IMG/VR virus record: IMGVR_UViG_3300017990_000011
Source: an uncultured virus (IMG/VR IMGVR_UViG_3300017990_000011)
Lineage: Duplodnaviria; Heunggongvirae; Uroviricota; Caudoviricetes
Length of the DNA: 64,000 nt
Strand: one strand, 5' to 3'
A program made the position numbers and the translations under genes. The notes beneath the pieces were generated by a model. It made no database searches, was not told the origin of the DNA, and worked only from the letters and a program-made list of their open reading frames with translations. This document shows, in pieces, positions 599 to 15,555 of this stretch; positions within the stretch are counted from its first letter, which is position 1, and the number at the start of each line of letters is the position of its first letter.

Positions 599-1572
599 GA
601 TATAAAAAGGAGATTTTAAACGTTGACTGGGTCAGCGAAATTATAATTGAACGGTTTGATGCTGCATTCGAATTATTAACTGACAATGCTGTCATATATG
701 GCGGTGCTGTCAGAGATGCTCTTGCTGGCAAACCATTGGTCGGAGACCTTGACATATCAGCGGCGCCTAGAGAGTTCGAAAATATACATCAATCCTTTAT
801 CCGCAGCGCCAGATGGAAACAAGTACAAAAGATGCCAGGTGTTCCTCAAAAAACTGATAGGTATGGAAAGAGAAAGATGCCTATCAATAATGTTGTGGAA
901 TTTGAAGGCATCAATGGCGCTTGTGCTCAACTAATCTGTTCGTCTGATCATAAATCCTCTAGAAAAGAGGCAACCCTTCACGTTCCGCGAAATGTAGACA
1001 TAATATGCTGTGGTGTTATTATAGACATCAACGGCAGAGTCTATGAGGTAGTGGAAGGCGCACATGATGATTGTTTGAAAGGTATCCTTAGACTTAATAA
1101 GGATATGGATCATCCACATCTTGAATCATTACTACAAAGAGCGGCTAAACTTGAGAAAAGAGGTTGGGTAAACAAGCTTGATCTCAAAGAGGCGAAGAGG
1201 TTGGAGCGTAAAAAGAAACCTAAAAGTGCTCGGCTAAAAAAAGCCAAGTCGGCATCTTCTGCCAAGTCCAAAGGTAAGATCAAGATCACTGGTGATCTAA
1301 GCACAGCAGAAGAAAGGGTAGTGGCCGCAACCCCAGTACAAACGTGGCCGGAGCCAACTGATCCTGTGCCTGAACATTATGTTCCAGGAGAGAAAAGAGG
1401 TGAGTGGGTGAAGGGTGCAAACTATGGTAGAATATCTTCTGATGTTATTCCTTCCGAGGAGTTTCGTAGAAAATATATGATATCCGACGATGATGAGGAT
1501 GGTTCAGAAGCTAAGAAAGAACGTCTCCGTGAGATGTATGGAGCAAAACCTAGAAAGTGGAGGGAAATGTAA
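586..1572 (+). CDS. Poly(A) polymerase/CCA-family nucleotidyltransferase head domain with basic C-terminal tail
   Basis: IYGGAVRDALAG...DLDI signature (GGxVRD...DxD); no HD or tail domain seen. Confidence 0.75.
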   Translation: MFKVGYKKEILNVDWVSEIIIERFDAAFELLTDNAVIYGGAVRDALAGKPLVGDLDISAAPREFENIHQSFIRSARWKQVQKMPGVPQKTDRYGKRKMPINNVVEFEGINGACAQLICSSDHKSSRKEATLHVPRNVDIICCGVIIDINGRVYEVVEGAHDDCLKGILRLNKDMDHPHLESLLQRAAKLEKRGWVNKLDLKEAKRLERKKKPKSARLKKAKSASSAKSKGKIKITGDLSTAEERVVAATPVQTWPEPTDPVPEHYVPGEKRGEWVKGANYGRISSDVIPSEEFRRKYMISDDDEDGSEAKKERLREMYGAKPRKWREM

Positions 1573-1956
1573 ATGGCAAAGATTAACAAAGTGTTTGTAT
1601 ATGGAACACTAAAAGAGGGCGGTCATTTCGCACAAGGATTTGATAAAGTCCGTGTAAGCACCATGAAAGCCACCATGGTTGGTAAATTGATGGATGTAAA
1701 TGGTTTTTATCCTGGCCTGGTGGAAGGCGATGGTGTTGTACATGGTGAAGTCCATGAATATAAACACATGGATGATGTCATCAGTGCCATGGATTCTATT
1801 GAAGGGTACGTCAGACACAACCCAGACCGTAGTCTTTATAAACGTAAGGTGGTAAAGGCGGAGACTGAGGATGGTGAGGTTGAGGTCTTTGCATATTTCT
1901 TCAATCAACCAACAGAGGGGCTCAAGGAAGTTAAAAACGGAGTATGGGAAATATAA
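1573..1956 (+). CDS. Gamma-glutamylcyclotransferase (GGCT/AIG2-like)
   Basis: N-terminal VFVYGTLK, VHGEV, D-x-x-EG, LYKR motifs. Confidence 0.9.
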   Translation: MAKINKVFVYGTLKEGGHFAQGFDKVRVSTMKATMVGKLMDVNGFYPGLVEGDGVVHGEVHEYKHMDDVISAMDSIEGYVRHNPDRSLYKRKVVKAETEDGEVEVFAYFFNQPTEGLKEVKNGVWEI

Positions 1957-1965
1957 GGAGGCGAG

Positions 1966-2250
1966 ATGAAAATTCTGGCAGTAGTTACAAATACAGGTGC
2001 AAGGTATGAGGCTGGAGCACCCATATCTGAGGGTGGAAGTCCTGTCAAGTCAATTACGTATCGCAGGAATTGTTATAACAACGGACATCAAGGACAATTC
2101 CCTGTCTACGAAATAAGATTCGAAGGCATGGATATCGTACAGCTTATCAATGACAGATATGCCGAGATAGTTGTGGTTGATCCTGAAAAAGATAAAAAGA
2201 AGGATGATGTGCCAGAACTGCCGGACGGAGGTGAAGAGAATGTCGGATAA
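1966..2250 (+). CDS. Hypothetical protein
   Basis: 94-aa ORF with AGGAGG RBS. Confidence 0.65.
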   Translation: MKILAVVTNTGARYEAGAPISEGGSPVKSITYRRNCYNNGHQGQFPVYEIRFEGMDIVQLINDRYAEIVVVDPEKDKKKDDVPELPDGGEENVG

Positions 2251-2941
2251 AATACTTGTACTCAATGGTGAATCATATGCCAGTGCTGTAAAGGACATCG
2301 GCCCTGTAGTTACAGACATGACGGAATTTCTACACAAACCAACAGATTTCAGATGTGTTCTGTTCACTGGTGGGGAGGATGTATCACCTGAATTGTATGA
2401 TGATGCTTCACCCAAGGGCTACTGCCATAACAATGAACTGCGTGATAAGGTTGAGCAGAATGTTTTCAAGCTAGCCTATGCAAATAACATCGCTATGGCA
2501 GGTATATGTCGTGGGATTCAATTCTTAAATGTGATGGCTGGCGGCAAGCTCATTCATCATTTGGATGGTCATTCAGTAGGTAAGTCACATCTTATGACCA
2601 CCACTATCCAAGAGGCGCCTATATTAGTTAACAGCCTGCACCATCAGGCTGTCATTCCACCTGATGATGCTGTTATCATTGGATGGTCTACTGTCCAGCT
2701 ATCGAAGAAATATATAGGATTCCAAGATCATCACATCAATTATGATGGTAAGGAGATAGAGGCGATGGTGATTCCTAAGTACAACATATTCGCCGTCCAA
2801 TATCACCCTGAAATGATGTCTGAGGATTCTACCGGCTACATCTTCTTCAATGCCGGCCTGACAACGTTCCTTGAAATGGGAGCCGATGAATTTGTAAAAG
2901 AATTCAGATATGGAGAACAAAATGGCACTGTACAGGCATAG
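2240..2941 (+). CDS. Class I glutamine amidotransferase / peptidase C26 (PuuD-like)
   Basis: FTGGEDVSPELY, GICRGIQFLNV (catalytic Cys), NSLHHQ, QYHPE; start moved to ATG 2240 after GGAGGTG RBS. Confidence 0.9.
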   Translation: MSDKILVLNGESYASAVKDIGPVVTDMTEFLHKPTDFRCVLFTGGEDVSPELYDDASPKGYCHNNELRDKVEQNVFKLAYANNIAMAGICRGIQFLNVMAGGKLIHHLDGHSVGKSHLMTTTIQEAPILVNSLHHQAVIPPDDAVIIGWSTVQLSKKYIGFQDHHINYDGKEIEAMVIPKYNIFAVQYHPEMMSEDSTGYIFFNAGLTTFLEMGADEFVKEFRYGEQNGTVQA

Positions 2942-3434
2942 ATCTGGGTTCACAGAACATTATCTCCAATTGATGGTGTCACTACCAGTCAATAGGTTTC
3001 TCCTGATAAAAGATCCTGTCAAAGAGCGGTGGGAATTGACTCTGAATGCATGGTTGCCTAACGCACACACTGACCCACAATTGACTGCCAGGCAACAAAT
3101 AGCTCATGTATTTAAAATGAGCCCTCTTGATAAAAGTTATTCATTAACAAAAATATGTACTGTAATAGCTGATATTCAAAAATTACATGTACATGTGTAT
3201 TCAGTCAAACCACTCAAATTGTTCAAATTTACTTCAGTAGCTTCAAAAGAATTCAAGATAAGATCGTTGTCTGATATTGTAAATGATTTACTTAACGAAG
3301 GTGCTGAACCAGGTATGTCTAATATATATACTACTGCTACTGTAGCTGTTCTTAGGAACATAGGAGACACGGAGTTATTATGGGACAGGAGATTAGAAAA
3401 TTCTTGGAAAAAGAAGTCTACGTTGCTGGTGTAG
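2910..3434 (+). CDS. Hypothetical protein
   Basis: 174-aa ORF in operon. Confidence 0.6.
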   Translation: MENKMALYRHRSGFTEHYLQLMVSLPVNRFLLIKDPVKERWELTLNAWLPNAHTDPQLTARQQIAHVFKMSPLDKSYSLTKICTVIADIQKLHVHVYSVKPLKLFKFTSVASKEFKIRSLSDIVNDLLNEGAEPGMSNIYTTATVAVLRNIGDTELLWDRRLENSWKKKSTLLV

Positions 3435-3892
3435 AAGATGATTTTGACGAGATGCATATGTCAGAAGAGTTGTTTATCTGTGAAACACTTGAGGGACTCC
3501 ACGAGCATTTAAACAGTCTTACACCATCAATGGACTCAGATGTGAAGGTTCTTCACGGTGTATTAACAAACGGTTTGGTTTTACCAAGCAAATTACATCG
3601 CCGTTCTGTGTTTCTTTTGATACCTAATGAAATGGCCGCTGAAGGAATGGGTGCAATAAAAGAATGCGATGTTGATGATATAGATGATCTCGCTGAAAAA
3701 ATAACCAATATGGTTGCAGAAGGTCAATATTATATCTGGGATCCATCAGACATCTTTATACTATATGGTTATGAAATCAAAGTCACATTGGGTATTGCTG
3801 ATGATGATGTTGATGATGAGGCCATCGCATCGGGCCACAAAATATTAGATGAGGTAAAACAGATTGCCAAAGCACATAGTGCGGGAGGATAA
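3380..3892 (+). CDS. Hypothetical acidic protein
   Basis: 170-aa D/E-rich ORF with GGAG RBS. Confidence 0.65.
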   Translation: MGQEIRKFLEKEVYVAGVEDDFDEMHMSEELFICETLEGLHEHLNSLTPSMDSDVKVLHGVLTNGLVLPSKLHRRSVFLLIPNEMAAEGMGAIKECDVDDIDDLAEKITNMVAEGQYYIWDPSDIFILYGYEIKVTLGIADDDVDDEAIASGHKILDEVKQIAKAHSAGG

Positions 3893-3895
3893 AAC

Positions 3896-4291
3896 ATGTC
3901 TTCATTGATACAATTGGAATTATACACACAAACACAGGAAGATCTCAAATACGAGGGTCGTTTGTTGGGGTTGATTACTTCTGAAGAGTTTGCTAAACTC
4001 ATAGATGATAAAACAACCGCAAATAAACTTTACACCAAAGAAACCACACCGTTGGCAGATTTGATGGGTTTAAAAGATGCCGACATCAAAGATATGCGCT
4101 TGGTTATGACAGTGAAATCCAAGAATGAAAAATCAGTACCACTTAAAACTCTCTATGTATCAGATAGGATCGGCTTGATGTCTTATGAATCTATAGGTGG
4201 TAAAACAGGTGACGGTGAGGATGAGATAGTCGTAAATACTGAAAATGATGAATGTTTATTTGTAAAAGAGGTAGACAATGCTGCAAAGTAA
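3896..4291 (+). CDS. Hypothetical protein
   Basis: 131-aa ORF, GGAGG RBS. Confidence 0.65.
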   Translation: MSSLIQLELYTQTQEDLKYEGRLLGLITSEEFAKLIDDKTTANKLYTKETTPLADLMGLKDADIKDMRLVMTVKSKNEKSVPLKTLYVSDRIGLMSYESIGGKTGDGEDEIVVNTENDECLFVKEVDNAAK

Positions 4292-5075
4292 TATAAGAGG
4301 GTGTGGTGCACCCTATACAGTTTCTAAAGAGTCGGAAGATAATGTCTACAAGCCGGGAACACTTGGTCTATTGTCATATGTAAAAGGTGTAGACCTTGAC
4401 TACCCTAATGTAGTATATTTCTTCGTTGTTACAGTACGTCGTGGAAAGGGCGGAAAACAGCGGTTAGATTTTAATGAAATATCTTTTCCGATATTCAATA
4501 CACCAAACTTGATTGACCTTTCGAAGAAGAAAGAATTTATGCCACCTCTTGACAGGCGTTATTTCGTAATGACAGAAACTCTGCCTTTGGTGTTCAGCCA
4601 TGCATTAAACATGGACGGACATGACTTCTTAGCTTGGTCATGTTGTCATGCAAAATACCTTAGCCAACTACGCAAGACTACCAATGGATTCAGGATGTGG
4701 CCGAAAGATAAAAAGCATGTAATGAATGTAATGAATTCAATGGACAATTATATGAACAGCCAACATTTTGATGAAGAACAACGTCAGAATACTTACAATC
4801 ATTATACAGATGGTGAAGCTCGTGATAAATTCATTCGCAAAATGAGACATATATCTAGCGCACTAACTCAATGTCATGTATCATACAAACAGAGAGTCGC
4901 CAAGGCAGAATTAGAGGCGATTATGCATATCAATAAAAACCTCAAAGCGTTTGGTGCTGACAAAAAAGAGGCTGGTGATGCTAGGATATATCATGAAAAG
5001 AAATATAAGAAAATTTCTCAGCTGATTAATATGCAACGTGCTAATAAAAATAAATCTGCATCAAAGTTATTCTGA
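4278..5075 (+). CDS. Hypothetical protein
   Basis: 265-aa ORF, GAGG RBS. Confidence 0.7.
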   Translation: MLQSNIRGCGAPYTVSKESEDNVYKPGTLGLLSYVKGVDLDYPNVVYFFVVTVRRGKGGKQRLDFNEISFPIFNTPNLIDLSKKKEFMPPLDRRYFVMTETLPLVFSHALNMDGHDFLAWSCCHAKYLSQLRKTTNGFRMWPKDKKHVMNVMNSMDNYMNSQHFDEEQRQNTYNHYTDGEARDKFIRKMRHISSALTQCHVSYKQRVAKAELEAIMHINKNLKAFGADKKEAGDARIYHEKKYKKISQLINMQRANKNKSASKLF

Positions 5076-5092
5076 TCATGGTCGAAAGGTTT
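5071..5092 (+). promoter_or_regulatory. Conserved 22-nt intergenic motif, copy 1 (candidate phage promoter/operator)
   Basis: TCTGATCATGGTCGAAAGGTTT matches 20883-20904 at 20/22 positions; both followed by an A-rich tract and an RBS. Confidence 0.55.
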
Positions 5093-5128
5093 TAAGGATT
5101 AAAAAAATAAATTTTGTTCGGAGGAAAA

Positions 5129-6034
5129 ATGTTTCTACCTGGCACGAAACTCGTGATTGTTGAAAGCTCTGTCAAGAAAAAGGCTACTGGTATCAAGCAG
5201 GGTAGTTTGTGCAATCTGATTGAATCACAGCAGACTATTTTCTCACACAGTTGCAATGCTGTAGTTACATATTGTAGTGCTTTGTTCACGAGATATGGTT
5301 TTGAGAAACCCAAAGGTAGGCTGGAAAGAAGAGGGTTTATTAATATCTTTCCAATCGTAATGAATTCTAAAATCACCACTGAAAAGGTTGATAGACACAT
5401 AAATAAGGTGATAAAAAATAGCCAGGAATCTTTGTGTCATGAATGTGATGTGGATTTTGGCACTCCGATTGTAGTAGCCCATCCAGTCATGAGTTCTGGT
5501 ATAGACATGCAAAAAGATCGAGAAGAATTTGATTCTTGGTTCCATGCGGTCATGATGTCAGGTCTTATAGGATACACTATAAACCTCGACAGATTAGATG
5601 CTCACTATAAGAAATTTGCTGATCTAAATTCAGATGATTTCATCGGACATATAAGAAGCATGGCACGTAGCAAGAACAAACGTTTAGAATACCTTGAGAT
5701 GATAAGAGACAATGATCATGGATTTAAAACAAGACTCATAAAAAGATTGATGAGTATGATATCTATAACCTCAAGAAAATATGCCGGACAAACAGTAAAC
5801 AGTATGAAACACTTTATATCGGGCAAGCGGAGAGTTGGCAATGAAGAGGTATTTACTTCACTAGTGACAATGTATTATAATAATAGTATAAAAACTATTA
5901 TAAATATACCAACCAAAGATGTAAACAAAGTTAAGATGAACAACACAGTTATCACCGGCCACCACATACGGGGTCTCTCTCACAGGACTTTGGGGTTGTT
6001 GGGGGATAATCAAGAGACAAAGGGGGATAAGTAA
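5129..6034 (+). CDS. Hypothetical protein upstream of RNA polymerase
   Basis: Long ORF; ATG 5129 follows GGAGG. Confidence 0.7.
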   Translation: MFLPGTKLVIVESSVKKKATGIKQGSLCNLIESQQTIFSHSCNAVVTYCSALFTRYGFEKPKGRLERRGFINIFPIVMNSKITTEKVDRHINKVIKNSQESLCHECDVDFGTPIVVAHPVMSSGIDMQKDREEFDSWFHAVMMSGLIGYTINLDRLDAHYKKFADLNSDDFIGHIRSMARSKNKRLEYLEMIRDNDHGFKTRLIKRLMSMISITSRKYAGQTVNSMKHFISGKRRVGNEEVFTSLVTMYYNNSIKTIINIPTKDVNKVKMNNTVITGHHIRGLSHRTLGLLGDNQETKGDK

Positions 6035-6067
6035 CTATTAACCACTACCATCAGAAAAGGAGCATGT

Positions 6068-9000
6068 ATGCTAGATAACTTGGCCAGCAAAAACCAGTGG
6101 TTGCAGAGCAGAGTTGAGAGTTATTTTTACGCAAGAGCAACAGCAGAGATCCAGAAGTGCGGCGGTACCTGTGATATAAAACTGTTGCCTAGTGTAGTAG
6201 ATAACAATCTGTGGTTAACATTCACAAACGGTAAGGAAACACATTCTGTAACAGTTCCTCTTCCAGTAGAGGAAAACGGTGTATTATTTGTAGATCAACA
6301 TGAAGTTCGCAGATCCCTCTGCAATTATTTTGTAGAAAGCACCGGCGGAACACTTGACTATTGGAATATCATGTATTATATTATATGTGGTGATCCTACA
6401 GGCATAGTTTCTCGGTCTTTTGTAAAGAAGACTCCGTTTCTTCAAAGGGTTATTTACTCATTCCAGAACGAGAACACTGCTACTATCATTTACAGTATGC
6501 AACGTGCAGTCAATGAATTAGTTAGTAAGATGCCGTTGCACAAGACATTCATGAATAGCTGGCTTATGAATCGTCGTCTCATATTTATCGATCCGCTGTT
6601 CGACGAATTGTCTAGTCCAAAAGAGAGACTTGAATATCAGATCGAGAAAGCTAAGAAGTATTTCGACAGAGGTTGGACAGCTCTAGGTCTGTCTGATGGT
6701 GTTTTAGCAGACAAGAACTACATACTTACTGATGACATCAGGAAGTATACACCCTTTGGACTGAAATGGCACAACCCACAGAGGAATCTGTATTCCACAT
6801 TGGGTATGCAGGGTGATGAAAAACCACTCATTAGATCAGAATCTATGGAGAAACTCATAGAGCAGGGTGTCGAGAGAACAGGTTGGAACTGGTTTACTTT
6901 GTTCGCTGACATTCCTGACAACTTCGAGGACCAGATTGTAGTAGATGAATCTCACAAGGATAAGTTCATCACACATCATCGCAGACTTCAGTGCTTTGGT
7001 GAGTTGTCTGTGAAACAGGGCGATAAGCTGAAATATGGGGACATTCTAAGCAGAAATACTGATGGTGGTATTCAGAAATTTGATACCATTGCAGACTCAG
7101 CTACGGTGGAGAGAATAAGCCCGTCTTTCACAAATATAGGTGGGCTACCAGTACTTGTCCACAATGTCATCGTTACCTATAAGTTGAAACTGCGTGATGG
7201 TACAAAGATTACCAATTTTCATGGTAATAAAGGTGTTATTAGACTAAAGCCGCTCGGACATGCCAAGGACCCCCGCACTGGTGAATTGGTGAAAATAGAT
7301 GTCATTGTATCAGCGAAGTCAATCGGCAAGAGAAAGAATTTTGGCCAGCTACTGGAAGCTATGGTCAATAACATCACGGACAATCAAGGCCTGGTTGTAA
7401 CTGATGACTTTCAGCAGCCTGTGGCTGAGGTGCAAGCGGCTATGGTGTCCCATGGATTTAAAGAGGACGCCTCATGGGAGTGTGAAACATATGTCGGCAA
7501 GTTGACTGGTATATGTGGGAAAGTGTTCTGGGGTGTCATAAATCATCCAGAGTACCAGCTCTGGAAGGAAAATGCCACCATTAAAACCAATGGGAAAGAG
7601 CTGAGAACAGCTGGCCTTAAGTTCTCTACCATTGAATTCAGATCACTTGAGACCAGATTCGGCAAAGGCAATCCTATAATCAATGAGATCATGTCTTATA
7701 TGCAGGGTACTGAAAACCTGCACGAGGAACTGACCGTTCTTCGCTCAAAGAAAGGAATATTGCCTAACGATGTGCCGGTAATCAATGTTGCCGACATCAC
7801 TCCCCTCGATCAAACGAATGGGACTATAGTGTCTCGTTCTACAATAAAGGATACAGTAGTAGATGACTGCTATCAGGCTGATGGGTTTATTATGCAACTA
7901 CCAGTAGCTTATCAAACTATATGGGATAAAGAGGAACAGGAAGTAGCAAGTGAGGGTATACCTATGCAAGTAATAACCCCAGCTATGTTATCTATCGCGG
8001 ACTTCTATACTACTGATAAGATCTACATACCAAGTGCTTTCCTTCGTAAGTGTTGGAGACACAGCACAGGTAAGGTCGGACTCAATGACATAGGAGTACT
8101 AGTAAATAATATAGTAGCACTATCCCATAGGTACATGAACAACCCTGAGGAGGCTGCTAATACTACACTACTATACAATGCAATTGGTACCTATTTCAGA
8201 AGGATAGCTGACATCTTGGGTTCTAAACGTGGTGATATCAGTTGTAATGCGATGTCTGTACGATACCCATTCGCTGTCAAAGCAGTGGCTACACTATCCA
8301 ATGGATTGGATAAGAACACTGTAGAAATACCACGGCACATGGCTGAGACATTGATGGTGTCCAATGGTGATATTGTACTAGCTGAACGGTTTCCATGTCT
8401 GGGATTCGTATCAGTGAGACCACAGAAGGTCAAGATAACAGATGACCCAATGGCTCAGTATACTATCAGAGTATCCGGCAACTCACTAGTGTCTCAGAAT
8501 CTGGATTTCGATGGTGATACTCTATTCCTTGCATCGTTCCATACAATAGAGGCTATCGATATACTGAGAAAAGAGTTCAACAATCCAAACAAGACATGTT
8601 ATGATGAGATCAAACGTCTAAACGCTCGCAAAGGTGCGCCACATATTAAATGTATGAGGCTTGCTGACTATAATGTACAACCATTCGCAGACCTGACTAA
8701 TGAGCGTCATGCTGAGATAATAGAGAAGAATACTGGTGTCAAAGCTCAGACTGGACCAGTAATTGCTCTCACATACAATCTCATGAGGATCATGGAGAAT
8801 TCTGGTTTGGAAATGAATAAGAAACTGGAAGTGGGAGTCGAGATGTTTATGGAGAAGGCTGCACAATCAGTCTTCGAACAGAAACATGGTGGACAATCAC
8901 TCCATGAGATAGTCATAGATGCCACCTGTACCGGTGATGTACGTCGTCTAGTAAAGGTAGGATTCAATGAACATATCAGTACCATCATATGTGATACTAT

Positions 9001-9469
9001 CAGAAGAAAAGCCAAAGAGCTTTCGAGGCCCCAGTTTGATTTGGTTAGATATCATGAGCTTGCCAAGGAAAATGGATGGTCAAATATTATTTCAAGAATA
9101 GTCAGAGAACAAAACCTAATCTACTATGCTAGTAGGTGTAAGCTTGAGGGGTGTAAACTATTAGATCTCCTTGAAGCACCAGCAGTTGACATCCCAAGTC
9201 GGATGTTTAAGTGGGCAGTCTCCGGCAAAGCGGAGCTGGTTAGGAATAAACTGGATGAAATATTAGAGGAAAGAGAATTGAGTAAGTTAAATGATGAAAA
9301 TGTGAAGGATGCCTGTGTCTCTTTATGTGCCTGTGTCGACACCATCTTTAATGGTGAAGACAAACCTGCTCAAGAATCTGAGGAGGATAAAATGAAAAAG
9401 CGTATGAGAGATCGGCTATTCGGGAGAAAATTAAATGTCGGAAATGTCTTTCATCACTATAAAGGGTAA
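6068..9469 (+). CDS. Single-chain double-psi-beta-barrel DNA-dependent RNA polymerase (beta-like plus beta'-like regions in one polypeptide)
   Basis: beta-type motifs GTKITNFHGNKGVI, IDVIVSAKSIGKRKNFGQLLE, GLKFSTIE followed by beta'-type LGSKRG..., RFPCL and catalytic NLDFDGD (8498-8518). Confidence 0.85.
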   Translation: MLDNLASKNQWLQSRVESYFYARATAEIQKCGGTCDIKLLPSVVDNNLWLTFTNGKETHSVTVPLPVEENGVLFVDQHEVRRSLCNYFVESTGGTLDYWNIMYYIICGDPTGIVSRSFVKKTPFLQRVIYSFQNENTATIIYSMQRAVNELVSKMPLHKTFMNSWLMNRRLIFIDPLFDELSSPKERLEYQIEKAKKYFDRGWTALGLSDGVLADKNYILTDDIRKYTPFGLKWHNPQRNLYSTLGMQGDEKPLIRSESMEKLIEQGVERTGWNWFTLFADIPDNFEDQIVVDESHKDKFITHHRRLQCFGELSVKQGDKLKYGDILSRNTDGGIQKFDTIADSATVERISPSFTNIGGLPVLVHNVIVTYKLKLRDGTKITNFHGNKGVIRLKPLGHAKDPRTGELVKIDVIVSAKSIGKRKNFGQLLEAMVNNITDNQGLVVTDDFQQPVAEVQAAMVSHGFKEDASWECETYVGKLTGICGKVFWGVINHPEYQLWKENATIKTNGKELRTAGLKFSTIEFRSLETRFGKGNPIINEIMSYMQGTENLHEELTVLRSKKGILPNDVPVINVADITPLDQTNGTIVSRSTIKDTVVDDCYQADGFIMQLPVAYQTIWDKEEQEVASEGIPMQVITPAMLSIADFYTTDKIYIPSAFLRKCWRHSTGKVGLNDIGVLVNNIVALSHRYMNNPEEAANTTLLYNAIGTYFRRIADILGSKRGDISCNAMSVRYPFAVKAVATLSNGLDKNTVEIPRHMAETLMVSNGDIVLAERFPCLGFVSVRPQKVKITDDPMAQYTIRVSGNSLVSQNLDFDGDTLFLASFHTIEAIDILRKEFNNPNKTCYDEIKRLNARKGAPHIKCMRLADYNVQPFADLTNERHAEIIEKNTGVKAQTGPVIALTYNLMRIMENSGLEMNKKLEVGVEMFMEKAAQSVFEQKHGGQSLHEIVIDATCTGDVRRLVKVGFNEHISTIICDTIRRKAKELSRPQFDLVRYHELAKENGWSNIISRIVREQNLIYYASRCKLEGCKLLDLLEAPAVDIPSRMFKWAVSGKAELVRNKLDEILEERELSKLNDENVKDACVSLCACVDTIFNGEDKPAQESEEDKMKKRMRDRLFGRKLNVGNVFHHYKG

Positions 9470-9917
9470 TAAGTTGAGAAATGGCTCTAGATTAATAGCA
9501 AAGAAAAACTATGGCCCATTACCAACTGGTTCGAGAGTCACTATCAAACTTATAAATAGAAACGGTGATGGCCCTCAGATCGGTATTGTTTCCGACCCAC
9601 GTGTTGAGGGTTGGCACAATTTAGATGGTGCATGTAAAGATGGCCATGGGTACTGGGTTGAGCCACGTCATATATCAGAATTTTTCAAAACAACGTCTTC
9701 TGATTGTATGGTCAAGGCCAATGTCTCTTACAAGAATAAATCCTTGAAAGGAATGGAGTGTAGTGTCCTTCACGAACTACCCAAATCTAAGGTGTTTGTG
9801 GAGTTGGCAGAGGATGTTGGTGGGGCCAGCTGTGATGGTCTTGGTAAAAAAGGACATTGTGTGGTGCTCCAAAGAGACCAGATAGGGCCAGTGAAGGCTA
9901 AATCAAAAAGAAATTAA
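9435..9917 (+). CDS. Hypothetical protein with two internal repeats
   Basis: GWHNLDGACKDGHGYWV / GASCDGLGKKGHCVV duplicated motif. Confidence 0.65.
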   Translation: MSEMSFITIKGNKLRNGSRLIAKKNYGPLPTGSRVTIKLINRNGDGPQIGIVSDPRVEGWHNLDGACKDGHGYWVEPRHISEFFKTTSSDCMVKANVSYKNKSLKGMECSVLHELPKSKVFVELAEDVGGASCDGLGKKGHCVVLQRDQIGPVKAKSKRN

Positions 9918-9929
9918 GAGAGGTGTAAA

Positions 9930-10322
9930 ATGGCTGAAAAGAAACGATTCGTAGGACCCATGATCAATCACTGTCTGTTTCAAGGTGAGATAACTGAGGA
10001 TCCTGTTATGAACAATGGGTATGCATTCCTCAACCTACGGACAAAATTTACGTCGCGTAGTGCGAACAACCAGTACGTGGATACGGAACTTGTCGTACCA
10101 CTGATGGTAGAACCAGACGGCCCAGTTAGAGTCATTGAACAGGGTCATATCAAACAATATCGGCAGCTTGCGGCTTGGTGCTATTACAAGTCTTGGAAGA
10201 CTGCTGAAGGTGCCATGGAGCATCGGTTTGTGGTAAAGAAATTCGATTTAGGCCACAAACCATTCGAACCAGCAGGTGATGCTGGTGCCGGCGGGGCCGG
10301 TGTTCCACCACTGCCACAATAA
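9930..10322 (+). CDS. Putative single-stranded DNA-binding (OB-fold) protein
   Basis: INHCLFQGEITEDP start resembles the SSB N-terminal strand; Gly/Pro-rich C-terminal tail. Confidence 0.5.
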   Translation: MAEKKRFVGPMINHCLFQGEITEDPVMNNGYAFLNLRTKFTSRSANNQYVDTELVVPLMVEPDGPVRVIEQGHIKQYRQLAAWCYYKSWKTAEGAMEHRFVVKKFDLGHKPFEPAGDAGAGGAGVPPLPQ

Positions 10323-10333
10323 AGGAGTGATCA

Positions 10334-10753
10334 ATGGATAGAGCAAAAGTAGCTCTTGGTAGAGCTCATAATGTACAAGGTACTGCTACCATTACGAATC
10401 CAGAAGATCTGTCCGTTGTTGATAGAATGAGGGCGATGGAGGCTAGAATAAATCAGCTTACTGAGTTGATTCATTCTGGTCTTCGCTCTCTATCTAAAGA
10501 CAGGAGAGGTAGTGATAATGCCTATAGTTCTGATCGAGATGGTGTAATTCCAGTTGGAACAATCTTTATGGGTACATCACAACGCAACGGCACACTTATC
10601 TTGACAGTAGCCGATGATGGATACTATATTGGTAACACAAAGTATGGTTCCTTATCAGCGGCTGCACAGTCAGCGAGCGGTGTTAGGCGTAGCGGCTGGA
10701 CATTTTGGAAATTAGCAGACGGCAGAACGGCTAAAGAGGCCTTCGGGAAATAA
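10334..10753 (+). CDS. RAMA/DUF4357-like DNA-binding domain protein
   Basis: C-terminal YGSLSAAA...SGWTFWK motif. Confidence 0.65.
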   Translation: MDRAKVALGRAHNVQGTATITNPEDLSVVDRMRAMEARINQLTELIHSGLRSLSKDRRGSDNAYSSDRDGVIPVGTIFMGTSQRNGTLILTVADDGYYIGNTKYGSLSAAAQSASGVRRSGWTFWKLADGRTAKEAFGK

Positions 10754-10754
10754 T

Positions 10755-11390
10755 ATGGGAAAGAGAAAAGGTAGGAAAAAGAAAAGAAAGAACAAACAGA
10801 AGTTTAGTAAGGTGCAATTCAGAGAGATTATCTGTGCCAAGTGTAAACTCTGTGAGTCTGATGATGCGATCAAGCATAATTTTTTCTGCTACAATCAGAT
10901 ATACTTGCAGAATCCTAAGCGATTCATCAAGACTACTTTCCCAGCATTACTGGAGGCGGCAGGTTGGATAGAAAACAATCAAAATCCAATTAGCAAGAGA
11001 CCAGATGCCAATGTTGTGTATATGTTGAAACACATATTCTGTAACTCTGGCGTCTGTGGAAAAGAATACTCAACGTGGGATGAAAAGAATCAGTGTGAGT
11101 TTACTGAAGATTGTCTTCAGACCTTTAAACAACAAATTCGGGGTGAATTAAGAAATAGCCCCAAGCTCATCGCTGAGACAAGCAGAAGAAAGAAGAAGAA
11201 TAAAAAGAAGAAGGATAAAAAGGTTGTAGTAAAACCTTATCCTACTTTTATCTGCAATCCCGAATTCGTGGAAGAAATCAGGGAAATATTAGGTGATGGA
11301 AATACAACTATCGAACAAAATTCGAGTGAAAAACGCGCCATCGGCGATACAGGAGTGGTTAATAAGCATACTAAAAGTGCCGAATCCTAA
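10755..11390 (+). CDS. Cys-rich, Lys-rich hypothetical protein
   Basis: CxxCxxC and further Cys; poly-Lys tracts. Confidence 0.65.
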   Translation: MGKRKGRKKKRKNKQKFSKVQFREIICAKCKLCESDDAIKHNFFCYNQIYLQNPKRFIKTTFPALLEAAGWIENNQNPISKRPDANVVYMLKHIFCNSGVCGKEYSTWDEKNQCEFTEDCLQTFKQQIRGELRNSPKLIAETSRRKKKNKKKKDKKVVVKPYPTFICNPEFVEEIREILGDGNTTIEQNSSEKRAIGDTGVVNKHTKSAES

Positions 11391-12696
11391 GTATGCAGAG
11401 GCTGAGCAGGCAGGAAGAAGTCTATGGGGCCTTGATCCATACCTATATAATTTCAGTTTCTTACCAGATAATAGTTTGTTAATCCCTCGGGGTCTTAGAG
11501 AAAAACTAATATCAGCGGCTGAAAAAGCTGATGTAGATTACACATTGATTGATAACAGGTCTAAGCATGATTTTGTACATGTAGATTCAAGAAACATTAA
11601 ATACAGACCTTATCAATATAATGCTGTACTTAAACTTATAGGTGAGACTGAGGGATTCATAGTAGCCCCGGCCGGTAGTGGTAAGACCGTAGTTGGTTTA
11701 AGTCTCTTACCACTATTGGGCCAACCAATGTTGTGGCTTACACATACTGGTCCACTAGCAGACCAAGCAAAGGAAAGAGCTGAATCTTTTTTACCGACTA
11801 TAGGTAAAATAGGTTTGCTAGGCAGAGGTAAATGGGAAATTGGTGAGTTATTAACCATAGCTATGGTTCAAACACTGGTCAGAAGACCAGATGATTTAAT
11901 TGGTATACGTGATAGATTCGGTACCGTAGTACTAGATGAGGCACATCATGCACCAGCTAGTACATTTCTAAAAGTGATAGGTGCTTTTAACAGTTATTAT
12001 TTGTATGGTCTAACAGCTACACCGTATAGACGGGATAAGCTTGAACAGATTATGTTTCAAGCCATTGGCTGGCCAAAGGTGACCATAGATATCGATGAAG
12101 TCGAAAAACATGGTGGTATAATGAAACCTGTTGTCAGATATCGTAGTGTAAGGTCTGCTAAAGTGGAAGGTAATAATATACAGACCATTCTCAAGAATAA
12201 CATCGTTGGTAATAAAAGTCGTAACAATATGATAGTAGGTGATGTTATAGCTGAAGCAACTAAAGGAAACTTTTGTATAGTTATTAGTGATAGGAAAGCT
12301 CATTGTGAAGACTTATATGAATTGATCTCTCTTGGTTGGGAAAAGACAGGTATTGCCACTGGTAATTATTCAAAGAAATATGTTAGAGAACAAGTGCAAC
12401 GATATAATGATAATGAGATTACTGTACTAGTTACTACATTCTCTCTGTTAGGTGAGGGATTTGATGTCGACTTCTTGAATAGAGCATTTATTGCTATGCC
12501 GTTTAGGGCTGAGAGTAAAGCTGAGCAGCTCATCGGTAGGATACAAAGAACCGCTCCTGGTAAAACTGACGCGATAGTATACGACTATGTGGATGTGGAT
12601 ATTGGTGTATTAAAAAATCAATTCCATGCCAACAAAGATAAGAATTGTCGTATCAATGTCTATGAAAGATTAGGACTATCGGTAGAACCATATTAA
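11296..12696 (+). CDS. Superfamily 2 DEAH-box helicase (ResIII/UvsW/XPB-like)
   Basis: RPYQ, APAGSGKT, DEAHH, GLTATPYR, LGEGFD, QLIGRIQR motifs. Confidence 0.92.
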   Translation: MEIQLSNKIRVKNAPSAIQEWLISILKVPNPKYAEAEQAGRSLWGLDPYLYNFSFLPDNSLLIPRGLREKLISAAEKADVDYTLIDNRSKHDFVHVDSRNIKYRPYQYNAVLKLIGETEGFIVAPAGSGKTVVGLSLLPLLGQPMLWLTHTGPLADQAKERAESFLPTIGKIGLLGRGKWEIGELLTIAMVQTLVRRPDDLIGIRDRFGTVVLDEAHHAPASTFLKVIGAFNSYYLYGLTATPYRRDKLEQIMFQAIGWPKVTIDIDEVEKHGGIMKPVVRYRSVRSAKVEGNNIQTILKNNIVGNKSRNNMIVGDVIAEATKGNFCIVISDRKAHCEDLYELISLGWEKTGIATGNYSKKYVREQVQRYNDNEITVLVTTFSLLGEGFDVDFLNRAFIAMPFRAESKAEQLIGRIQRTAPGKTDAIVYDYVDVDIGVLKNQFHANKDKNCRINVYERLGLSVEPY

Positions 12697-12701
12697 GGAG
12701 A

Positions 12702-13907
12702 GTGAGTTTAATGAAAATAGATATAAAGATTTCAAATACAATGACGAAAGAATGCGACTGGAACAGAGGGTTCGAGAATCGCATAATAAGATTACCACTA
12801 CATTGCAGACAAGAATTTAATTTAAGTAATCACGATTTCGTTAATCTTAATACAAAAGACGGTATACCTCTTAATCTTCAGATAGCACCGGCGTTCAAAG
12901 AAGATGTTGCAGAAGATCCAACATCAGCATACGTCACTGCTGAAGTATTCGAGGTTTTAGAAGGAAATTCACTTAGAGCCAAAGATGTAGAAACTGTTAA
13001 GAATATTACTCTTGGCTGCGATCCAGAGTTGTTCATTATAGATTGTAGAAACGGTGGATTAGTTAGTGCCAGATCTTATTTTGGAAAGAGTGGTGATGTT
13101 GGAAATGATGGAATGCTATTGGAATTCAGACCACTTCCTAGCACCGATGAAACCATTGTAACGGACAACATCATGAATCTCATATCCAAAGCTAGAATGA
13201 TGTTGAACTTGAAACCACAAGTGAGCCCACACTTAATGTTATATGGTGCATCTAATTATCAAGGGGCTACTGCAGGATTTCATCTTCATTATGGAGTGCC
13301 GTATCAGATGTTGGGATTCCAGAGAACGGTGAAGACAGTGATACGTCAAGTAGTAAAGGCAATGGATTATTATGTGGGTGTACCAGCTATTATTCCAGAA
13401 GGTAATACAGATACAAGACGTCGGACATCAACATATATTAAGTATGGTAAACCAGGTGAGTTTAGGATTGATAATAGAACACTAGAATATAGAGTTCCAG
13501 GTGGCTCGTTGTTAAGACATCCTATATTAACTAATGGTATACTAGCATTGGGAGCAGTAGTAATAGAAGACATAGTGAGTAGAATCAATGCTTGCACTGA
13601 TAACTTTGCTAACATGCAGGAAATGCAATGTACAGAGCATATACATGAGCTGTATCCAAATATGCCTAGTAATCAGAAAGTGTTTTCAATGATATGTGTT
13701 CCTGAAGTAACGTATGCATTCAGTAAATTAAATGATATATATACAGACATTCAGAAGATGGTTGGGTACAAGGCGAGAAAACCATCTGTGGATGCATTCT
13801 TTAATTGTTTATTTAACGGAGTTCAGTTCGGAAATAATATAGAAGAAAATTGGGGGAGGTTCTACAATGAGAAACACGCAAGACAAATGGACGTTCATTC
13901 AAAATGA
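12702..13907 (+). CDS. phiEco32-like COOH.NH2 ligase type 2 with extra N-terminal domain
   Basis: TLGCDPELF, EFRP, GFHLHYG, YGKPGEFR, LEYRVPGG motifs. Confidence 0.85.
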   Translation: MSLMKIDIKISNTMTKECDWNRGFENRIIRLPLHCRQEFNLSNHDFVNLNTKDGIPLNLQIAPAFKEDVAEDPTSAYVTAEVFEVLEGNSLRAKDVETVKNITLGCDPELFIIDCRNGGLVSARSYFGKSGDVGNDGMLLEFRPLPSTDETIVTDNIMNLISKARMMLNLKPQVSPHLMLYGASNYQGATAGFHLHYGVPYQMLGFQRTVKTVIRQVVKAMDYYVGVPAIIPEGNTDTRRRTSTYIKYGKPGEFRIDNRTLEYRVPGGSLLRHPILTNGILALGAVVIEDIVSRINACTDNFANMQEMQCTEHIHELYPNMPSNQKVFSMICVPEVTYAFSKLNDIYTDIQKMVGYKARKPSVDAFFNCLFNGVQFGNNIEENWGRFYNEKHARQMDVHSK

Positions 13908-15555
13908 CATCTATCCAGCATTGTCGGCAAAAGATGTAGCTTACTGGAAAAGTAATCTGCATAAAATTCTTAAGGTCGGGTTGGAGTTTGAGTTCAATCT
14001 GCCTAATAAAAAGAATGGCAACTGCAAGGGCGAGAGTAATTCCTGCCCGTGTGCCAGAATGAATGAACATGACTGCTGGGCGCAGTGTGCATTGGTAGAA
14101 GAATGTGAGAGCGTAAGATTGCGTGCTCGATGTGCAAACAATAGCAAGAAATGTAAGGATGATAATTGTGAAGAGTGCGATCAATACAAACTCATGTGTC
14201 ATGGTATAAATTGCCCCAATTTTGTGAGCGCATGTTTCATATGTTCAGATTTTACAGTGGATTGTAAGGGGTGTGAGTTCCGATATGATCCGAAGAAAAG
14301 TCCTGAGCATATCAGGGAGTCCATGAAGAAAAACTTCCGGCCGAACAACACATACGGTACCATCAATGAGAGTGGTGTACACAGCATCACAACTGATGGA
14401 TCCCTACTCGGTAAGAAGGGGGCAGAGGTTATTACAATAGGAAGACGTGTGGATTACTGGGAGTTCTATAAGATGGCTAAGAAAATCATCGATACCTCAG
14501 TAAAACATGGTGCCTATCTCAATGAAAGATGTAGTATTCATATGCATCTGCTGGCAAGCTACTACGGTAAAGTGGTACCTGATGGTAGTGGTTCCAGCAT
14601 ACCGAATAAAATTAACGAGCTGGAGAAGGACATGCCGTCCATCATTCTTGCCAATTTTCATCAGCTGGTCAGAAGATATCAAAACGCTATGACTTGGATG
14701 GTGATGGCATTGGATGAACCAGAACGGTTAACCAGATGGGAGAAGTTCAGAGTATCTGTACTACCAATATCTGCCATTCTCAATAGCATGCGTCAGGTTA
14801 AACAGGAAGTATCTCATCATGCAGGCGGAAACAAATATGGTTGGGTTAACTACAACTATACTGAGTTCTCCAAGAGCTCTGGTGATGTGACCAGACTTCA
14901 TGTGGAAATGAGAGCAGCAGACGGCATGAATTCGCCAAGCGCAGTAGCAGCATTAGCTTGTATGAACTACGCCTTGATGATCAAAGCAGTAGAGATTTCC
15001 AGATACGGTGTTGTGGAGATTGAAAGCAATGAGTGGATGGAAAGAGCGGAGATGATCAAGAGCGCATTGCTGAATAACATGAAAAGTTATCAGGACGGCG
15101 ATAGATTCGGAGACACCCGCAATCTGCGTAAATATTATGAAGATTTGATTCGTGAATCCATGGATCTCGTCCGTCAATTGAAGCACAACCTGATACGTAT
15201 TGGTCCAGCATACCAGGTTCTGGAGAAAATAGCAGAGAAACCTATCGCTTTACGCAGATGTGATGGTGCTACCTGGGAACAAATCGAAGATGATTTGGCC
15301 ATTATCATGACCGAAGAGGGTAAGTTTGAGAACACTCTCAGTGAAATCATGGATTTGAGAATCATTGATGAGTGCAAAGACGTCCACGAATGGGTGCATG
15401 AAGTCACAGGTGTTATTAAAGAACATCCAGATGTTGACACCAACCACAGTACTGATGATGAAATCATGAATAAGGTTAGGTATTTTGTGGAGATGAAACA
15501 AAACGATGGTGAACTGGTATGGTCTGAGCCAATAGGTGCTCCAGTGCTTCTCTAA
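13867..15555 (+). CDS. Putative amidoligase (glutamine synthetase-like fold) with Cys-rich insert
   Basis: VGLEFEF, TDGSL..GAEVIT, CSIHMHL, HVEMRAADG motifs. Confidence 0.8.
   Translation: MRNTQDKWTFIQNDIYPALSAKDVAYWKSNLHKILKVGLEFEFNLPNKKNGNCKGESNSCPCARMNEHDCWAQCALVEECESVRLRARCANNSKKCKDDNCEECDQYKLMCHGINCPNFVSACFICSDFTVDCKGCEFRYDPKKSPEHIRESMKKNFRPNNTYGTINESGVHSITTDGSLLGKKGAEVITIGRRVDYWEFYKMAKKIIDTSVKHGAYLNERCSIHMHLLASYYGKVVPDGSGSSIPNKINELEKDMPSIILANFHQLVRRYQNAMTWMVMALDEPERLTRWEKFRVSVLPISAILNSMRQVKQEVSHHAGGNKYGWVNYNYTEFSKSSGDVTRLHVEMRAADGMNSPSAVAALACMNYALMIKAVEISRYGVVEIESNEWMERAEMIKSALLNNMKSYQDGDRFGDTRNLRKYYEDLIRESMDLVRQLKHNLIRIGPAYQVLEKIAEKPIALRRCDGATWEQIEDDLAIIMTEEGKFENTLSEIMDLRIIDECKDVHEWVHEVTGVIKEHPDVDTNHSTDDEIMNKVRYFVEMKQNDGELVWSEPIGAPVLL

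Follow-up and report, generated by a model that had tools for sequence, protein, structure and literature searches.

A probable one-piece, cell-type RNA polymerase of 1133 amino acids in an uncultured jumbo tailed phage

The window, a 64-kb stretch of viral DNA, carries phage-type genes and belongs to a lineage of uncultured jumbo tailed phages. Its plus strand contains an intact open reading frame (ORF) of 1133 codons (6068–9469) that starts with an ATG after an AAAGGAG ribosome-binding site and ends with TAA. The 1133-aa product, P0001, has hundreds of relatives and matches the Pfam models Rpb2_6 and Rpb1_2, and the gene is annotated here as encoding a two-barrel RNA polymerase (RNAP). Each of the motifs that a first-pass annotation had named in this ORF was found where it had been placed: HGNKG (aa 385–389, nt 7220–7234), KRKNFGQLLE (aa 421–430), GLKFSTIE (aa 516–523), LGSKRG (aa 717–722), RFPCL (aa 774–778), and NLDFDGD (aa 811–817, nt 8498–8518).

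The genes around the polymerase are metabolic and DNA-handling ones, with no structural genes in the block. Three plus-strand genes directly upstream (3896–4291, 4278–5075, and 5114–6034) stay linked to the polymerase gene among its closer-clade relatives; they were recovered at 8, 6, and 8 of 12 loci, respectively, in the second round of hmmsearch, and homologues of 4278 and 5114 were undetectable in the distant clade. The products of these two share an N-terminal domain of ~120 aa (hhalign probability 89.9%, E 1.7e-6). No Pfam, PHROG, or NCBIfam model matched the upstream products, and their PDB profile matches were at chance level only. Considered as alpha-like subunits, they were ruled out, having no similarity to E. 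coli RpoA; thus, unlike cellular RNAP, P0001 has no alpha-like partner that could be found among its neighbors. On the 3' side, a plus-strand gene (11293–12696) encodes an XPB/Rad25/RadD-like SF2 helicase with Pfam ResIII, DEAD, and Helicase_C matches (NCBIfam XPB, E 4e-17; rad25, E 1e-8), and such a gene lies 3' of the polymerase gene in all 13 loci. Farther along the same strand, a RuvB-like AAA+ gene (23239–24225) is directly followed by a sigma-70-family gene (24225–25106) that matches Pfam Sigma70_r2 and TIGR02937 (55.6 bits against a cut-off of 42.9).

The polymerase signal in P0001 exceeds chance, as profile matches and invariant residues show. RNA_pol_Rpb2_6 (PF00562) covers aa 365–468 (E 1.2e-6; 28.4 bits, above the cut-off of 23.4) and RNA_pol_Rpb1_2 (PF00623) covers aa 763–819 (E 3e-4; 21.5 bits, just below the cut-off of 25.3), and the two models are matched at E≤0.01 by 29 and 26 of the 32 aligned family members. 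The family profile finds bacterial RpoB chains in the PDB (best E 1.1e-8), and in hhalign comparisons it aligns with E. coli beta at a probability of 88% (E 2.8e-6) and with two canonical beta'-like proteins, P0234 and P0233, at 96.5%. Across all 32 aligned members, 21 catalytic or structural positions are invariant, among them K380, K388, R422, N424, Q427, R774, P776, D813, D815, and D817. In these alignments, a beta-type barrel with two invariant lysines precedes a beta'-type barrel with an invariant Asp triad, which supports the earlier proposal of a single polypeptide in which a beta-type active-site module is followed by a beta'-type one. Judged on its sequence, P0001 is very probably a miniature one-piece cell-type RNAP, and both regions may fold as double-psi beta-barrels.

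The beta-like module (aa ~1–560, nt 6068–7747) is delimited by the stand-alone 556-aa protein of a split relative and by alignment with a longer single-chain protein, P0211, which matches aa 224–488 at 98.6% (hhalign). Its conserved core extends from NPQRNLYSTLGM (aa 236–247) through the barrel, and detectable relatives of the N-terminal 225 aa are limited to the family itself. The barrel region (6923–7471), defined by the PF00562 match, an alignment with E. coli beta 1031–1120, and invariant residues, runs from FEDQIVVDES (aa 286–295) to K380...HGNK388G and R422/N424/Q427, and it includes a short hybrid-motif-like insert, VKQGDKLKYGDIL (aa 315–327). The alignment of aa 272–295 with E. coli beta 797–821 provides a weak second anchor.

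The beta'-like module (aa ~590–1133, nt 7835–9469) corresponds to a 508-aa protein of the split relative and to P0189 (537 aa), which matches aa 648–978 (E 1.4e-21). At 8021–8300, a segment containing IYIPSAFLRKCW and LGSKRGDISCNAMSVRYPFAVKA aligns with the beta' clamp core, placing a switch-2/clamp-core-like segment ahead of the beta' barrel. The hhalign probability of this segment against E. coli beta' 242–362 is only 11%; the same register against the canonical P0234 and P0233 reaches 96.5%, and K720, G722, and R732 are invariant in the 32 aligned members. We take the labels lid-like, helical hairpin, and switch-2-like for this segment from the anatomy of E. coli beta', to which it presumably corresponds. 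The barrel that follows (8354–8524; PF00623, aa 763–819) comprises RFPCLGF and the metal-binding loop NLDFDGD. By position and invariance, a candidate bridge helix (GVKAQTGPVIALTYNLMRI, aa 890–908) and a candidate trigger-loop histidine (FEQKH940GG) can be placed at 8735–8893, where K892, T895, G896, Y903, R907, E910, K939, and H940 are identical in 32 of 32 members; aa 840–1133 gave no significant alignment with cellular beta'.

P0001 keeps the module order of the rpoB-rpoC operon. Its RpoB-like features, with E. coli as reference, are the beta barrel K...HGNKG and R-x-N-x-x-Q, and its RpoC-like features are the K-x-G...R switch-2-like motif, R-x-P-x-L-G, and the D-F-D-G-D loop. The first-pass annotation had described the protein as unusually close in motif content to cellular enzymes, a description that is supported in part only: sequence similarity to cellular subunits can be detected just in aa ~224–535 (the beta barrel and its flanks) and ~650–840 (the beta' clamp core/switch-2 and barrel). 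NCBIfam rpoB and rpoA1 models score 14–26 bits against cut-offs of 800–1400, and Rpb2 domains 1–5 and 7 and Rpb1 domains 1, 3, 4, and 5 were found in none of the 32 members at E≤10. Neither the N-terminal 300 aa nor the C-terminal 294 aa aligned with E. coli beta/beta', P0211, P0233, or the giant module described below at a probability above 5.6%, and no match exists for the first 225 aa or the last 290 aa. The small size that had been claimed is real: 1133 aa compares with 2749 aa for E. coli RpoB and RpoC, about 40% and so less than half of the two bacterial subunits together. The stretch that precedes the aligned beta' segment has ~64 residues in P0001 against 243 in E. coli.

The family is known from metagenomes only. 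Among 7999 scored candidates, 364 were relatives at E≤1e-3, and there are 61 clusters at 50% identity with E≤1e-30; members range from about 1000 to 1240 aa and occur on phage contigs of up to 330 kb. The gene is thus widespread and, by its conservation, appears to be under selection. Full-length copies are present in 13 IMG/VR loci at 36–55% identity, on viral contigs that reach 298 kb, one of them with terminal repeats. No relative was found among GenBank phages or PHROGs; tblastn against GenBank phages returned seven at E 0.2–1 only. The 23 in-house families of PMC10770324 aside, no description of the family was found in the literature searched, which included PMC7598289, PMC7481178, PMC7162821, and bioRxiv 10.1101/2020.03.07.982082 besides the papers cited below. 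In the split relative (locus L014), a beta'-like gene is directly followed by a beta-like gene; the stand-alone 556-aa protein aligns with P0001 aa 56–555 (hhalign 99.2%, E 1.6e-19) and the 508-aa protein with aa 590–817, so by alignment the polymerase of split relatives is divided into two subunits, one for each half. Nine DNA sequencing runs from sediment and seawater metagenomes contain the stretch, wholly or in part, and no RNA run is among the runs listed.

By sequence, P0001 lies outside the characterized YonO, P23-45, phiKZ, and crAss gp66 families. YonO of the Bacillus prophage SPbeta is a single-chain RNAP (Forrest et al. 2017, PMC5467207) and resembles P0001 in being a phage-encoded single polypeptide of about 100 kDa in the two-barrel superfamily. 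It is nevertheless undetectable by sequence (hhalign 0.13%; best BLASTP E 2.4), whereas the family profile aligns with E. coli beta. The crAss-like phi14:2 gp66 (PDB 6VR4) was not returned when the PDB was searched with the beta'-module profile (33 matches in all at E≤10), nor is it in the best 60 of the 108 PDB matches of the whole-family profile. The phiKZ/AR9-like jumbo phages offer a similar setting, with a virion plus non-virion pair of polymerases, and a Rad25-like SF2 helicase is associated with RNAP in phiKZ-like phages according to a passage of PMC7824862; the helicase here is XPB/Rad25-like and syntenic. Their RNAPs, however, consist of four or five polypeptides that jointly span full-length beta/beta', whereas P0001 is one chain, and phiKZ/AR9-like PHROGs (3295, 2987, and others) gave short barrel-level matches only (E 3e-8 and 5e-7). 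In the part of PMC7824862 concerned, phiKZ-like phages with multisubunit RNAPs are described as having no sigma factors. Two metagenomic single chains, P0211 (1561 aa) and P0233 (1760 aa), have beta followed by beta' as in P0001. They carry seven Rpb1/Rpb2 Pfam domains (E down to 1e-50) against two weak ones in the P0001 family, and by these matches they are far nearer to cellular enzymes.

The Asn that precedes the Asp triad is, as far as is known, universal in cellular enzymes, where it contacts the ribose; the equivalent N811 is Asn in just 16 of the 32 aligned members. This variability would fit an enzyme with another template or product, such as a QDE-1-like RNA-dependent RNA polymerase, a primase-like enzyme, or a PolD-like DNA polymerase, all of which belong to the two-barrel superfamily according to passages of PMC7281927. 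Such an activity is nonetheless very improbable, given that the PDB matches were only to subunits of DNA-dependent RNAPs and to the P23-45 tape-measure polymerase (in the best 60 of 108 and in all 33), and that the RNAP switch-2 motif is matched in the beta' segment ahead of the barrel.

Each of five related genomes contains a further match to the family profile, within a giant ORF. In four of them the giant ORF also carries the tape-measure domain PF10145, and in the fifth the ORF is cut by the contig end. These tape-measure proteins are 4,500–7,700 aa long in related complete genomes, and the diverged paralogue that they carry, which has MNLDFDGD, aligns at 98.8% (E 7e-17) with the compact family. 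In genomes G002–G005, the giant protein has the polymerase module at its N-terminal end, and a free copy lies elsewhere. The paralogue is known from relatives at 36–48% identity to P0001; within the window, which is a 64-kb part of this phage, no tape-measure polymerase copy is present and the longest ORF, of 1559 aa (32432–37111, minus strand), is not a polymerase. This ORF was considered as a second polymerase and ruled out (hhalign 0.19%; no similarity to P0211).

The same layout, an N-terminal module fused to the tape measure plus a free compact single-chain paralogue, is found in Thermus phage P23-45, where passages of Chaban et al. 2024 (PMC10770324) identify gp96 as the tape-measure-fused virion RNAP and gp64 as the non-virion single-chain RNAP. 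In P23-45 the two polymerases are nearer to each other than to other families (same source, in part), and the compact and giant copies studied here are likewise nearer to each other than to other families. There are also differences. Just 76 columns of the beta' barrel of gp96 align with our family (91.6%), gp64 reaches 10.6% only, and the giant module matches neither. At 1133 aa, P0001 has almost double the length of gp64 (616 aa); unlike the P23-45 polymerases, it is recognized by cellular Pfam models, and its family resides in jumbo phages of 230–300 kb rather than in an 86-kb siphovirus.

The overall explanation that we favor, and regard as probable, is that P0001 is the catalytic non-virion protein of a two-barrel DNA-dependent phage RNAP in a two-polymerase cascade. 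Between genomes G004 and G005 the compact copies are 69% identical and the giant N-termini 29%; with a fast-evolving paralogue in the tape-measure protein of relatives, the compact, slowly evolving protein is therefore read as the non-virion enzyme. The active site would lie at the interface of both barrels, as in cellular enzymes, with the Asp triad holding Mg2+ and the lysines touching the RNA 3' end and the NTP, and the invariant residues at aa 890–910 and 939–940 may provide the bridge helix and the trigger-loop histidine. Injection would deliver the tape-measure copy, and the compact polymerase, produced after infection, would transcribe a middle or late gene class; this timing and gene class we purely infer. 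The reverse assignment, in which the compact protein itself is packaged or acts earliest, leaving the tape-measure copy as either another enzyme or a structural relic, appears quite unlikely. It would account for the fast evolution of the tape-measure module and for its degenerate beta-like motif (RSGIKG in G004 against HGNKG in the family), but MNLDFDGD is preserved in the tape-measure copies of the two genomes inspected, the compact gene sits away from structural genes, and the only studied precedent, that of P23-45, has a tape-measure copy that is active and injected, as stated in part of PMC10770324.

Four TTGACA-N16-TATATT sites (11/12 matches) lie 5' of minus-strand genes, and none occurs in plus-strand intergenic gaps within 1–20 kb. 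Under the favored cascade, the host RNAP would read the sigma-70-type promoters on the other strand, and the candidate sources of promoter specificity for the compact polymerase are the sigma-70-family protein and the XPB-like helicase, both syntenic, along with the conserved genes upstream. The first two of these may be polymerase partners.

Sigma homologues occur in 7 of 8 related records with a fused polymerase, on the same strand and 14–18 kb 3' of the polymerase gene in all 7, as in the window; the AAA+ gene is 5' of sigma at 4 of 4 inspected loci, and at least 10 sigma homologues lie on contigs equally long as those with polymerase homologues. In a tentative refinement of the cascade explanation, the compact polymerase would not suffice by itself and would use this phage sigma for promoter specificity, with sigma docking on the helical hairpin before the switch-2-like motif and the helicase aiding promoter opening; it competes with the possibility that sigma redirects the host RNAP. 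The 242–362 region of E. coli beta' holds the clamp helices bound by sigma region 2, and the segment aligned to it is kept in P0001. The region that in E. coli beta holds the flap, the site for sigma region 4, has however ~47 residues in P0001 against 209, so the canonical second sigma contact has probably been lost. The sigma gene is also absent from G002 (86% complete, polymerase present) and from the split-form G006 (95% complete). Part of a 2026 jumbo-phage review (PMC13282480) describes a subunit of the phiKZ nvRNAP that is structurally like sigma; on the other side, passages of PMC7824862 report that sigma factors serving the host enzyme are encoded by many jumbo phages that lack a polymerase of their own.

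Taken to its full extent, this line of thought would make P0001 the smallest sigma-dependent core of a cell-type RNAP, a beta-beta' mini-core of ~1130 aa, which we consider doubtful. On this reading the mini-core would retain the beta' sigma-docking hairpin, would lack the flap, zinc finger, lobes, and alpha scaffold, and would act together with a private sigma, an XPB-like helicase, and possibly the two paralogous upstream proteins of ~270–300 aa, while an injected tape-measure paralogue would start the cascade. If true, the mini-core reading would provide a natural minimal holoenzyme with which to ask which RNAP parts promoter-specific initiation needs.

Few single-chain two-barrel RNAPs are known, and those studied (YonO, P23-45 gp64/gp96, crAss gp66, and QDE-1) have diverged so far that it is mainly structure that ties them to cellular enzymes. 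The P0001 family differs in having hundreds of well-conserved members recognizable with cellular sequence models, in fused and split forms, and with a tape-measure-borne paralogue in related genomes; the family therefore provides a graded series from cell-type to minimal polymerases. The family would also provide a second, independent lineage for the combination of an injected tape-measure polymerase with a free one, which the literature examined, as far as its relevant passages go, reports for Thermus phages only. Its length of 1133 aa, possibly complemented by a sigma of its own, makes P0001 a compact candidate for work in transcription biochemistry and in synthetic biology.

Lastly, the 20-nt motif TGATCRTGGTCGAAAKGTTT lies on the plus strand at 5073–5092, with an A-rich tract after it, just 5' of gene 5114 and the polymerase gene. 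Its shorter core, RTGGTCGAAAKGTTT, was absent from the 32 related loci searched. Within the window, the motif has a second copy at 20885–20904; it thus matches exactly twice, and once more with 3 mismatches, where none is expected (100 shuffles).

The ORF at 6068-9469 (+) is an uninterrupted frame of 1133 codons, with AAAGGAG seven bases upstream of the ATG and a TAA stop codon, and its product (P0001, to which aa numbers refer) is, judging from its sequence, very probably a bona fide catalytic protein of the two-barrel RNA polymerase type. The first-pass annotation had described a compact single-polypeptide enzyme with beta-like motifs followed by beta'-like ones, and we verified all of the motif positions on which this description was based: HGNKG (nt 7220-7234), KRKNFGQLLE, GLKFSTIE, LGSKRG, RFPCL, and NLDFDGD (nt 8498-8518). 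Pfam returned RNA_pol_Rpb2_6 at aa 365-468 (E 1.2e-6, 28.4 bits against a cut-off of 23.4) and RNA_pol_Rpb1_2 at aa 763-819 (E 3e-4, 21.5 bits, slightly below the cut-off of 25.3), and no other domain on P0001. Among 32 aligned relatives of full length, these two domains were found in 29/32 and 26/32 sequences, respectively (E<=0.01), and no other Rpb1/Rpb2 domain was detected in any member, down to E<=10.

Searching the PDB with the family profile retrieved bacterial RpoB chains (best E 1.1e-8), together with Rpb1 and the P23-45 tape-measure polymerase at E near 1e-4. With hhalign, aa 343-434 correspond to residues 1031-1120 of E. coli beta (88%, E 2.8e-6), and aa 649-745 correspond to residues 242-362 of beta' with a probability of just 11%; the identical register is recovered at 96.5% against the canonical beta'-like proteins P0234 and P0233. 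In this register, a helical segment leads to a K-x-G-x-I...R...S switch-2-like motif, then to R-x-P-x-L and the Asp loop. Residues invariant in all 32 relatives include K380, N387, K388, G389, R422, N424, and Q427 in the beta-like part; K720, G722, R732, R774, P776, D813, D815, and D817 in the beta'-like part; and K892, T895, G896, Y903, R907, E910, K939, and H940 after the Asp loop. N811, the Asn ahead of the Asp triad, is retained in only 16 of the 32.

Genomes in which the polymerase is split clarify how the chain is built. On L014, a 231.6-kb viral contig, the first of two adjacent genes is beta'-like (7789-9315, +; 508 aa); its product contains G-A-D-S-D-G-D and matches aa 590-817. The second is beta-like (9305-10975, +; 556 aa), with a product matching aa 56-555 (99.2%, E 1.6e-19), and the order is thus the reverse of the fused one. 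Further stand-alone halves are P0200, P0202, P0205, P0223, and P0189. P0001 can thus be read as two fused modules, the first beta-like (aa ~1-560) and the second beta'-like (aa ~590-1133).

The chain amounts to ~40% of the size of beta plus beta'. Between hhalign anchors, the flap region spans about 47 residues compared with 209 in E. coli beta, a figure for which the upstream anchor is weak (probability 0.5%), and ahead of the aligned beta' segment there are about 64 residues compared with 243 in E. coli. Neither the N-terminal ~225 nor the C-terminal ~290 residues align significantly with E. coli beta/beta' or with the more cell-like fused proteins. We therefore infer from position and invariance only that aa ~890-908 represent a candidate bridge helix and H940 a candidate trigger-loop histidine.

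Comparison with known single-chain enzymes qualifies the earlier proposal that the protein is unusually close to cellular polymerases. YonO, the single-chain RNA polymerase of SPbeta, has no similarity to the compact polymerase (hhalign 0.13%; BLASTP E>2), and relative to YonO-like enzymes the proposal stands. It does not extend to all fused forms, because two fused metagenome proteins, P0211 (1561 aa) and P0233 (1760 aa), retain seven Rpb1/Rpb2 Pfam domains, unlike the compact family. These two proteins form a more cell-like single-chain beta-beta' family, separate from the compact one. Just 76 columns of the beta' barrel of P23-45 gp96, the tape-measure-fused polymerase, align to the compact family (91.6%), and its non-virion counterpart gp64 scores 10.6%.

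Relatives are numerous in metagenomes. A word-indexed search yielded 364 proteins at E<=1e-3 (7999 candidates scored); among the 120 matches listed, lengths are 1102-1244 aa except for one fragment, identities are mostly 51-56%, source contigs reach 329,815 bp, and names, where given, are "hypothetical protein." An exhaustive search of representatives at 50% identity gave 115 matches, 61 of them with E<=1e-30. Another 13 relatives of full length come from IMG/VR viral contigs, the longest of which measures 297,725 bp; one contig (295,848 bp) has direct terminal repeats. In the Atlas, several neighboring clusters of fused Rpb2_6 + Rpb1_2 proteins (911-1675 aa) were found, and one of the two nearest was automatically named "putative DNA-directed RNA polymerase." No relative was found among the INPHARED GenBank phages at E<=1e-5; at E<=1, seven short, barrel-level matches to jumbo-phage RNA polymerase subunits appeared, and in PHROGs the phiKZ-type subunit families were likewise matched at barrel level only. 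Across 185,579 species-representative genomes, the family is confined to contigs of 16-43 kb and one 3.2-kb fragment. Given that these pieces are short and that their MAG labels are mutually incompatible (Stahlbacteria, Muribaculaceae, Patescibacteria, Arcobacteraceae, and Altiarchaeales), they look like mis-binned phage contigs. A full-text literature search, covering such text as the sources made available and leaving the 23 families of Chaban et al. 2024 out of the comparison, returned no description of the family. It is a new, apparently undescribed family among single-chain two-barrel phage RNA polymerases, and stands out for its size and conservation, for occurring in fused and split forms, for having a tape-measure paralogue, and for being syntenic with genes for a sigma factor and an XPB-like helicase.

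The paralogue emerged when the family profile was searched against the genomes of five relatives, of which three are estimated to be complete: each of the five carries the compact gene and, within an open frame of 3325-7674 aa, an additional weak match. In G004 and G005, two of these genomes, the giant ORFs (minus strand; L027, G004:252000-271999, at 3-12713; L028, G005:161000-180999, at 2-13030) combine a polymerase module with PF10145, a tape-measure hallmark. The module, at aa ~568-942, matches the compact family at aa 247-614 (98.8%, E 7e-17), and MNLDFDGD occurs at aa 1388 and 1404; PF10145 lies ~1,100 residues past the Asp loop (E 4e-25). In 4/5 genomes the sole PF10145 match falls in the giant ORF, and in the fifth the contig ends within the ORF. 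The giant tape-measure proteins of these jumbo phages measure 4,500-7,700 aa and carry an N-terminal two-barrel module paralogous to the compact enzyme. No significant similarity was detected between the module and E. coli beta, beta', or YonO. Between G004 and G005, identity is 69% for the compact polymerase and 29% for the giant N-terminus. A FastTree phylogeny of the beta-like core, built from 41 sequences and 337 columns with P0211 as root, recovers the fused family as monophyletic (SH-like support 0.83) and places the split protein P0202 as sister to it (0.83). The tape-measure modules branch next (0.90), within the compact superfamily; support is moderate and branches are long.

For the Thermus phage P23-45, PMC10770324 describes a tape-measure polymerase accompanied by a free polymerase; the related jumbo genomes have the same two-polymerase layout in an unrelated sequence family. 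We consider it likely that the compact polymerase is the non-virion enzyme of a three-polymerase phage, in which the tape-measure copy would be the injected polymerase, the compact enzyme would act as the non-virion polymerase, and the host enzyme would be the third polymerase used.

Promoter-like signals bear on the host enzyme. Four TTGACA-N16-TATATT sites (58329-58302, 52889-52862, 47877-47850, and 44527-44500, minus strand; 11/12 consensus match) lie in gaps directly upstream of minus-strand genes, often with the core AATGCTTATATT. Since near-consensus sigma-70 promoters precede genes there, the pattern suggests that the host RNA polymerase reads the minus-strand half of the window. The plus-strand block containing the polymerase (1-25106) is tightly packed, with gaps of <=54 nt, and no listed sigma-70-like site falls inside an intergenic gap on the plus strand within 1-20 kb. 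A 20-nt motif, TGATCRTGGTCGAAAKGTTT, occurs in this block in two exact copies, at 5073-5092 and 20885-20904 (+; 0 expected). It overlaps the stop codon of the gene before it, an A-rich tract comes next, and it may be a phage-specific promoter or processing site.

A sigma-70-family gene is located at 24225-25106 (+; TIGR02937, 55.6 bits against a cut-off of 42.9). Homologues occur in 7/8 related records carrying the fused polymerase, in all seven 14-18 kb downstream of it on the same strand; none was found in G002 or in the genome with the split polymerase (G006). Immediately 5' of sigma, in the window (pair at 23239-25106, +) and in 4/4 relatives inspected (L029-L032), stands a RuvB-like AAA+ gene, which PHROGs places with clamp loaders. 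The pair is reminiscent of T4, whose late transcription depends on the clamp loader. P0001 retains the segment matching the beta' region on which sigma region 2 docks, and has mostly lost the flap region. That this sigma serves the compact polymerase rather than the host core is a tentative idea, which we regard as rather doubtful.

Downstream of the polymerase, an SF2 helicase, an amidoligase, a 562-aa protein, and a glutamine amidotransferase are conserved in 13/13 loci. The helicase (11293-12696, +) is XPB/Rad25/RadD-like (NCBIfam), and phiKZ-type polymerases are also linked to a Rad25-like helicase (PMC7824862). The gene for the 562-aa protein (13867-15555, +) ranks with the most highly conserved genes of the block (33-59% identity, 13/13 loci), and its product matched no family in Pfam, PHROGs, or NCBIfam. 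A large peptide- or metabolite-modifying cluster (12702-23227, with 1573-2941 and 28761-29519; +) comprises two phiEco32-type COOH-NH2 ligases, two or three glutamine amidotransferases, two ATP-grasp ligases, a GNAT, a gamma-glutamyl cyclotransferase, and a peptidase C26. The ligase, 562-aa protein, and amidotransferase genes that accompany the polymerase in 13/13 loci belong to this cluster. Upstream, profile searches found orthologues of 5114-6034 in 8/12 loci, of 4278-5075 in 6/12, and of 3896-4291 in 8/12; in the distant clade, the genes at these positions have no detectable relation to those of the window. A domain of ~120 aa at the N-terminus is common to the 4278 and 5114 products (89.9%, E 1.7e-6), which resemble neither RpoA nor any solved structure. 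Elsewhere, we observed a caspase-family peptidase (C14), a PAS-PAS-receiver protein, and a protein with a cyclic-phosphate-type receiver domain (54216-55229 and 59161-61563, minus strand).

The window also encodes small RNAs. The ORF-less 607-nt gap at 27178-27784 contains a tRNA-like T-arm string, GGTTCGAATCC, and no gene was called there by ARAGORN or by Rfam at its gathering threshold. An ARAGORN tRNA-Met (55683-55754, -) inside ORF 55243-55758 was unconfirmed by Rfam and is probably false. A tRNA with anticodon CUA, which would read TAG (48951-49023, -; "Pyl" in ARAGORN), was confirmed as a tRNA by Rfam; no TAG recoding is visible in the window, where TAG is the stop of 14/69 ORFs, and this tRNA may serve genes outside it. 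Finally, a phage tmRNA with tag peptide GNMKNYAKDMLKGVSRTSKVLYA (50708-51037, -; Rfam 82 bits) adjoins a tRNA-Gly.
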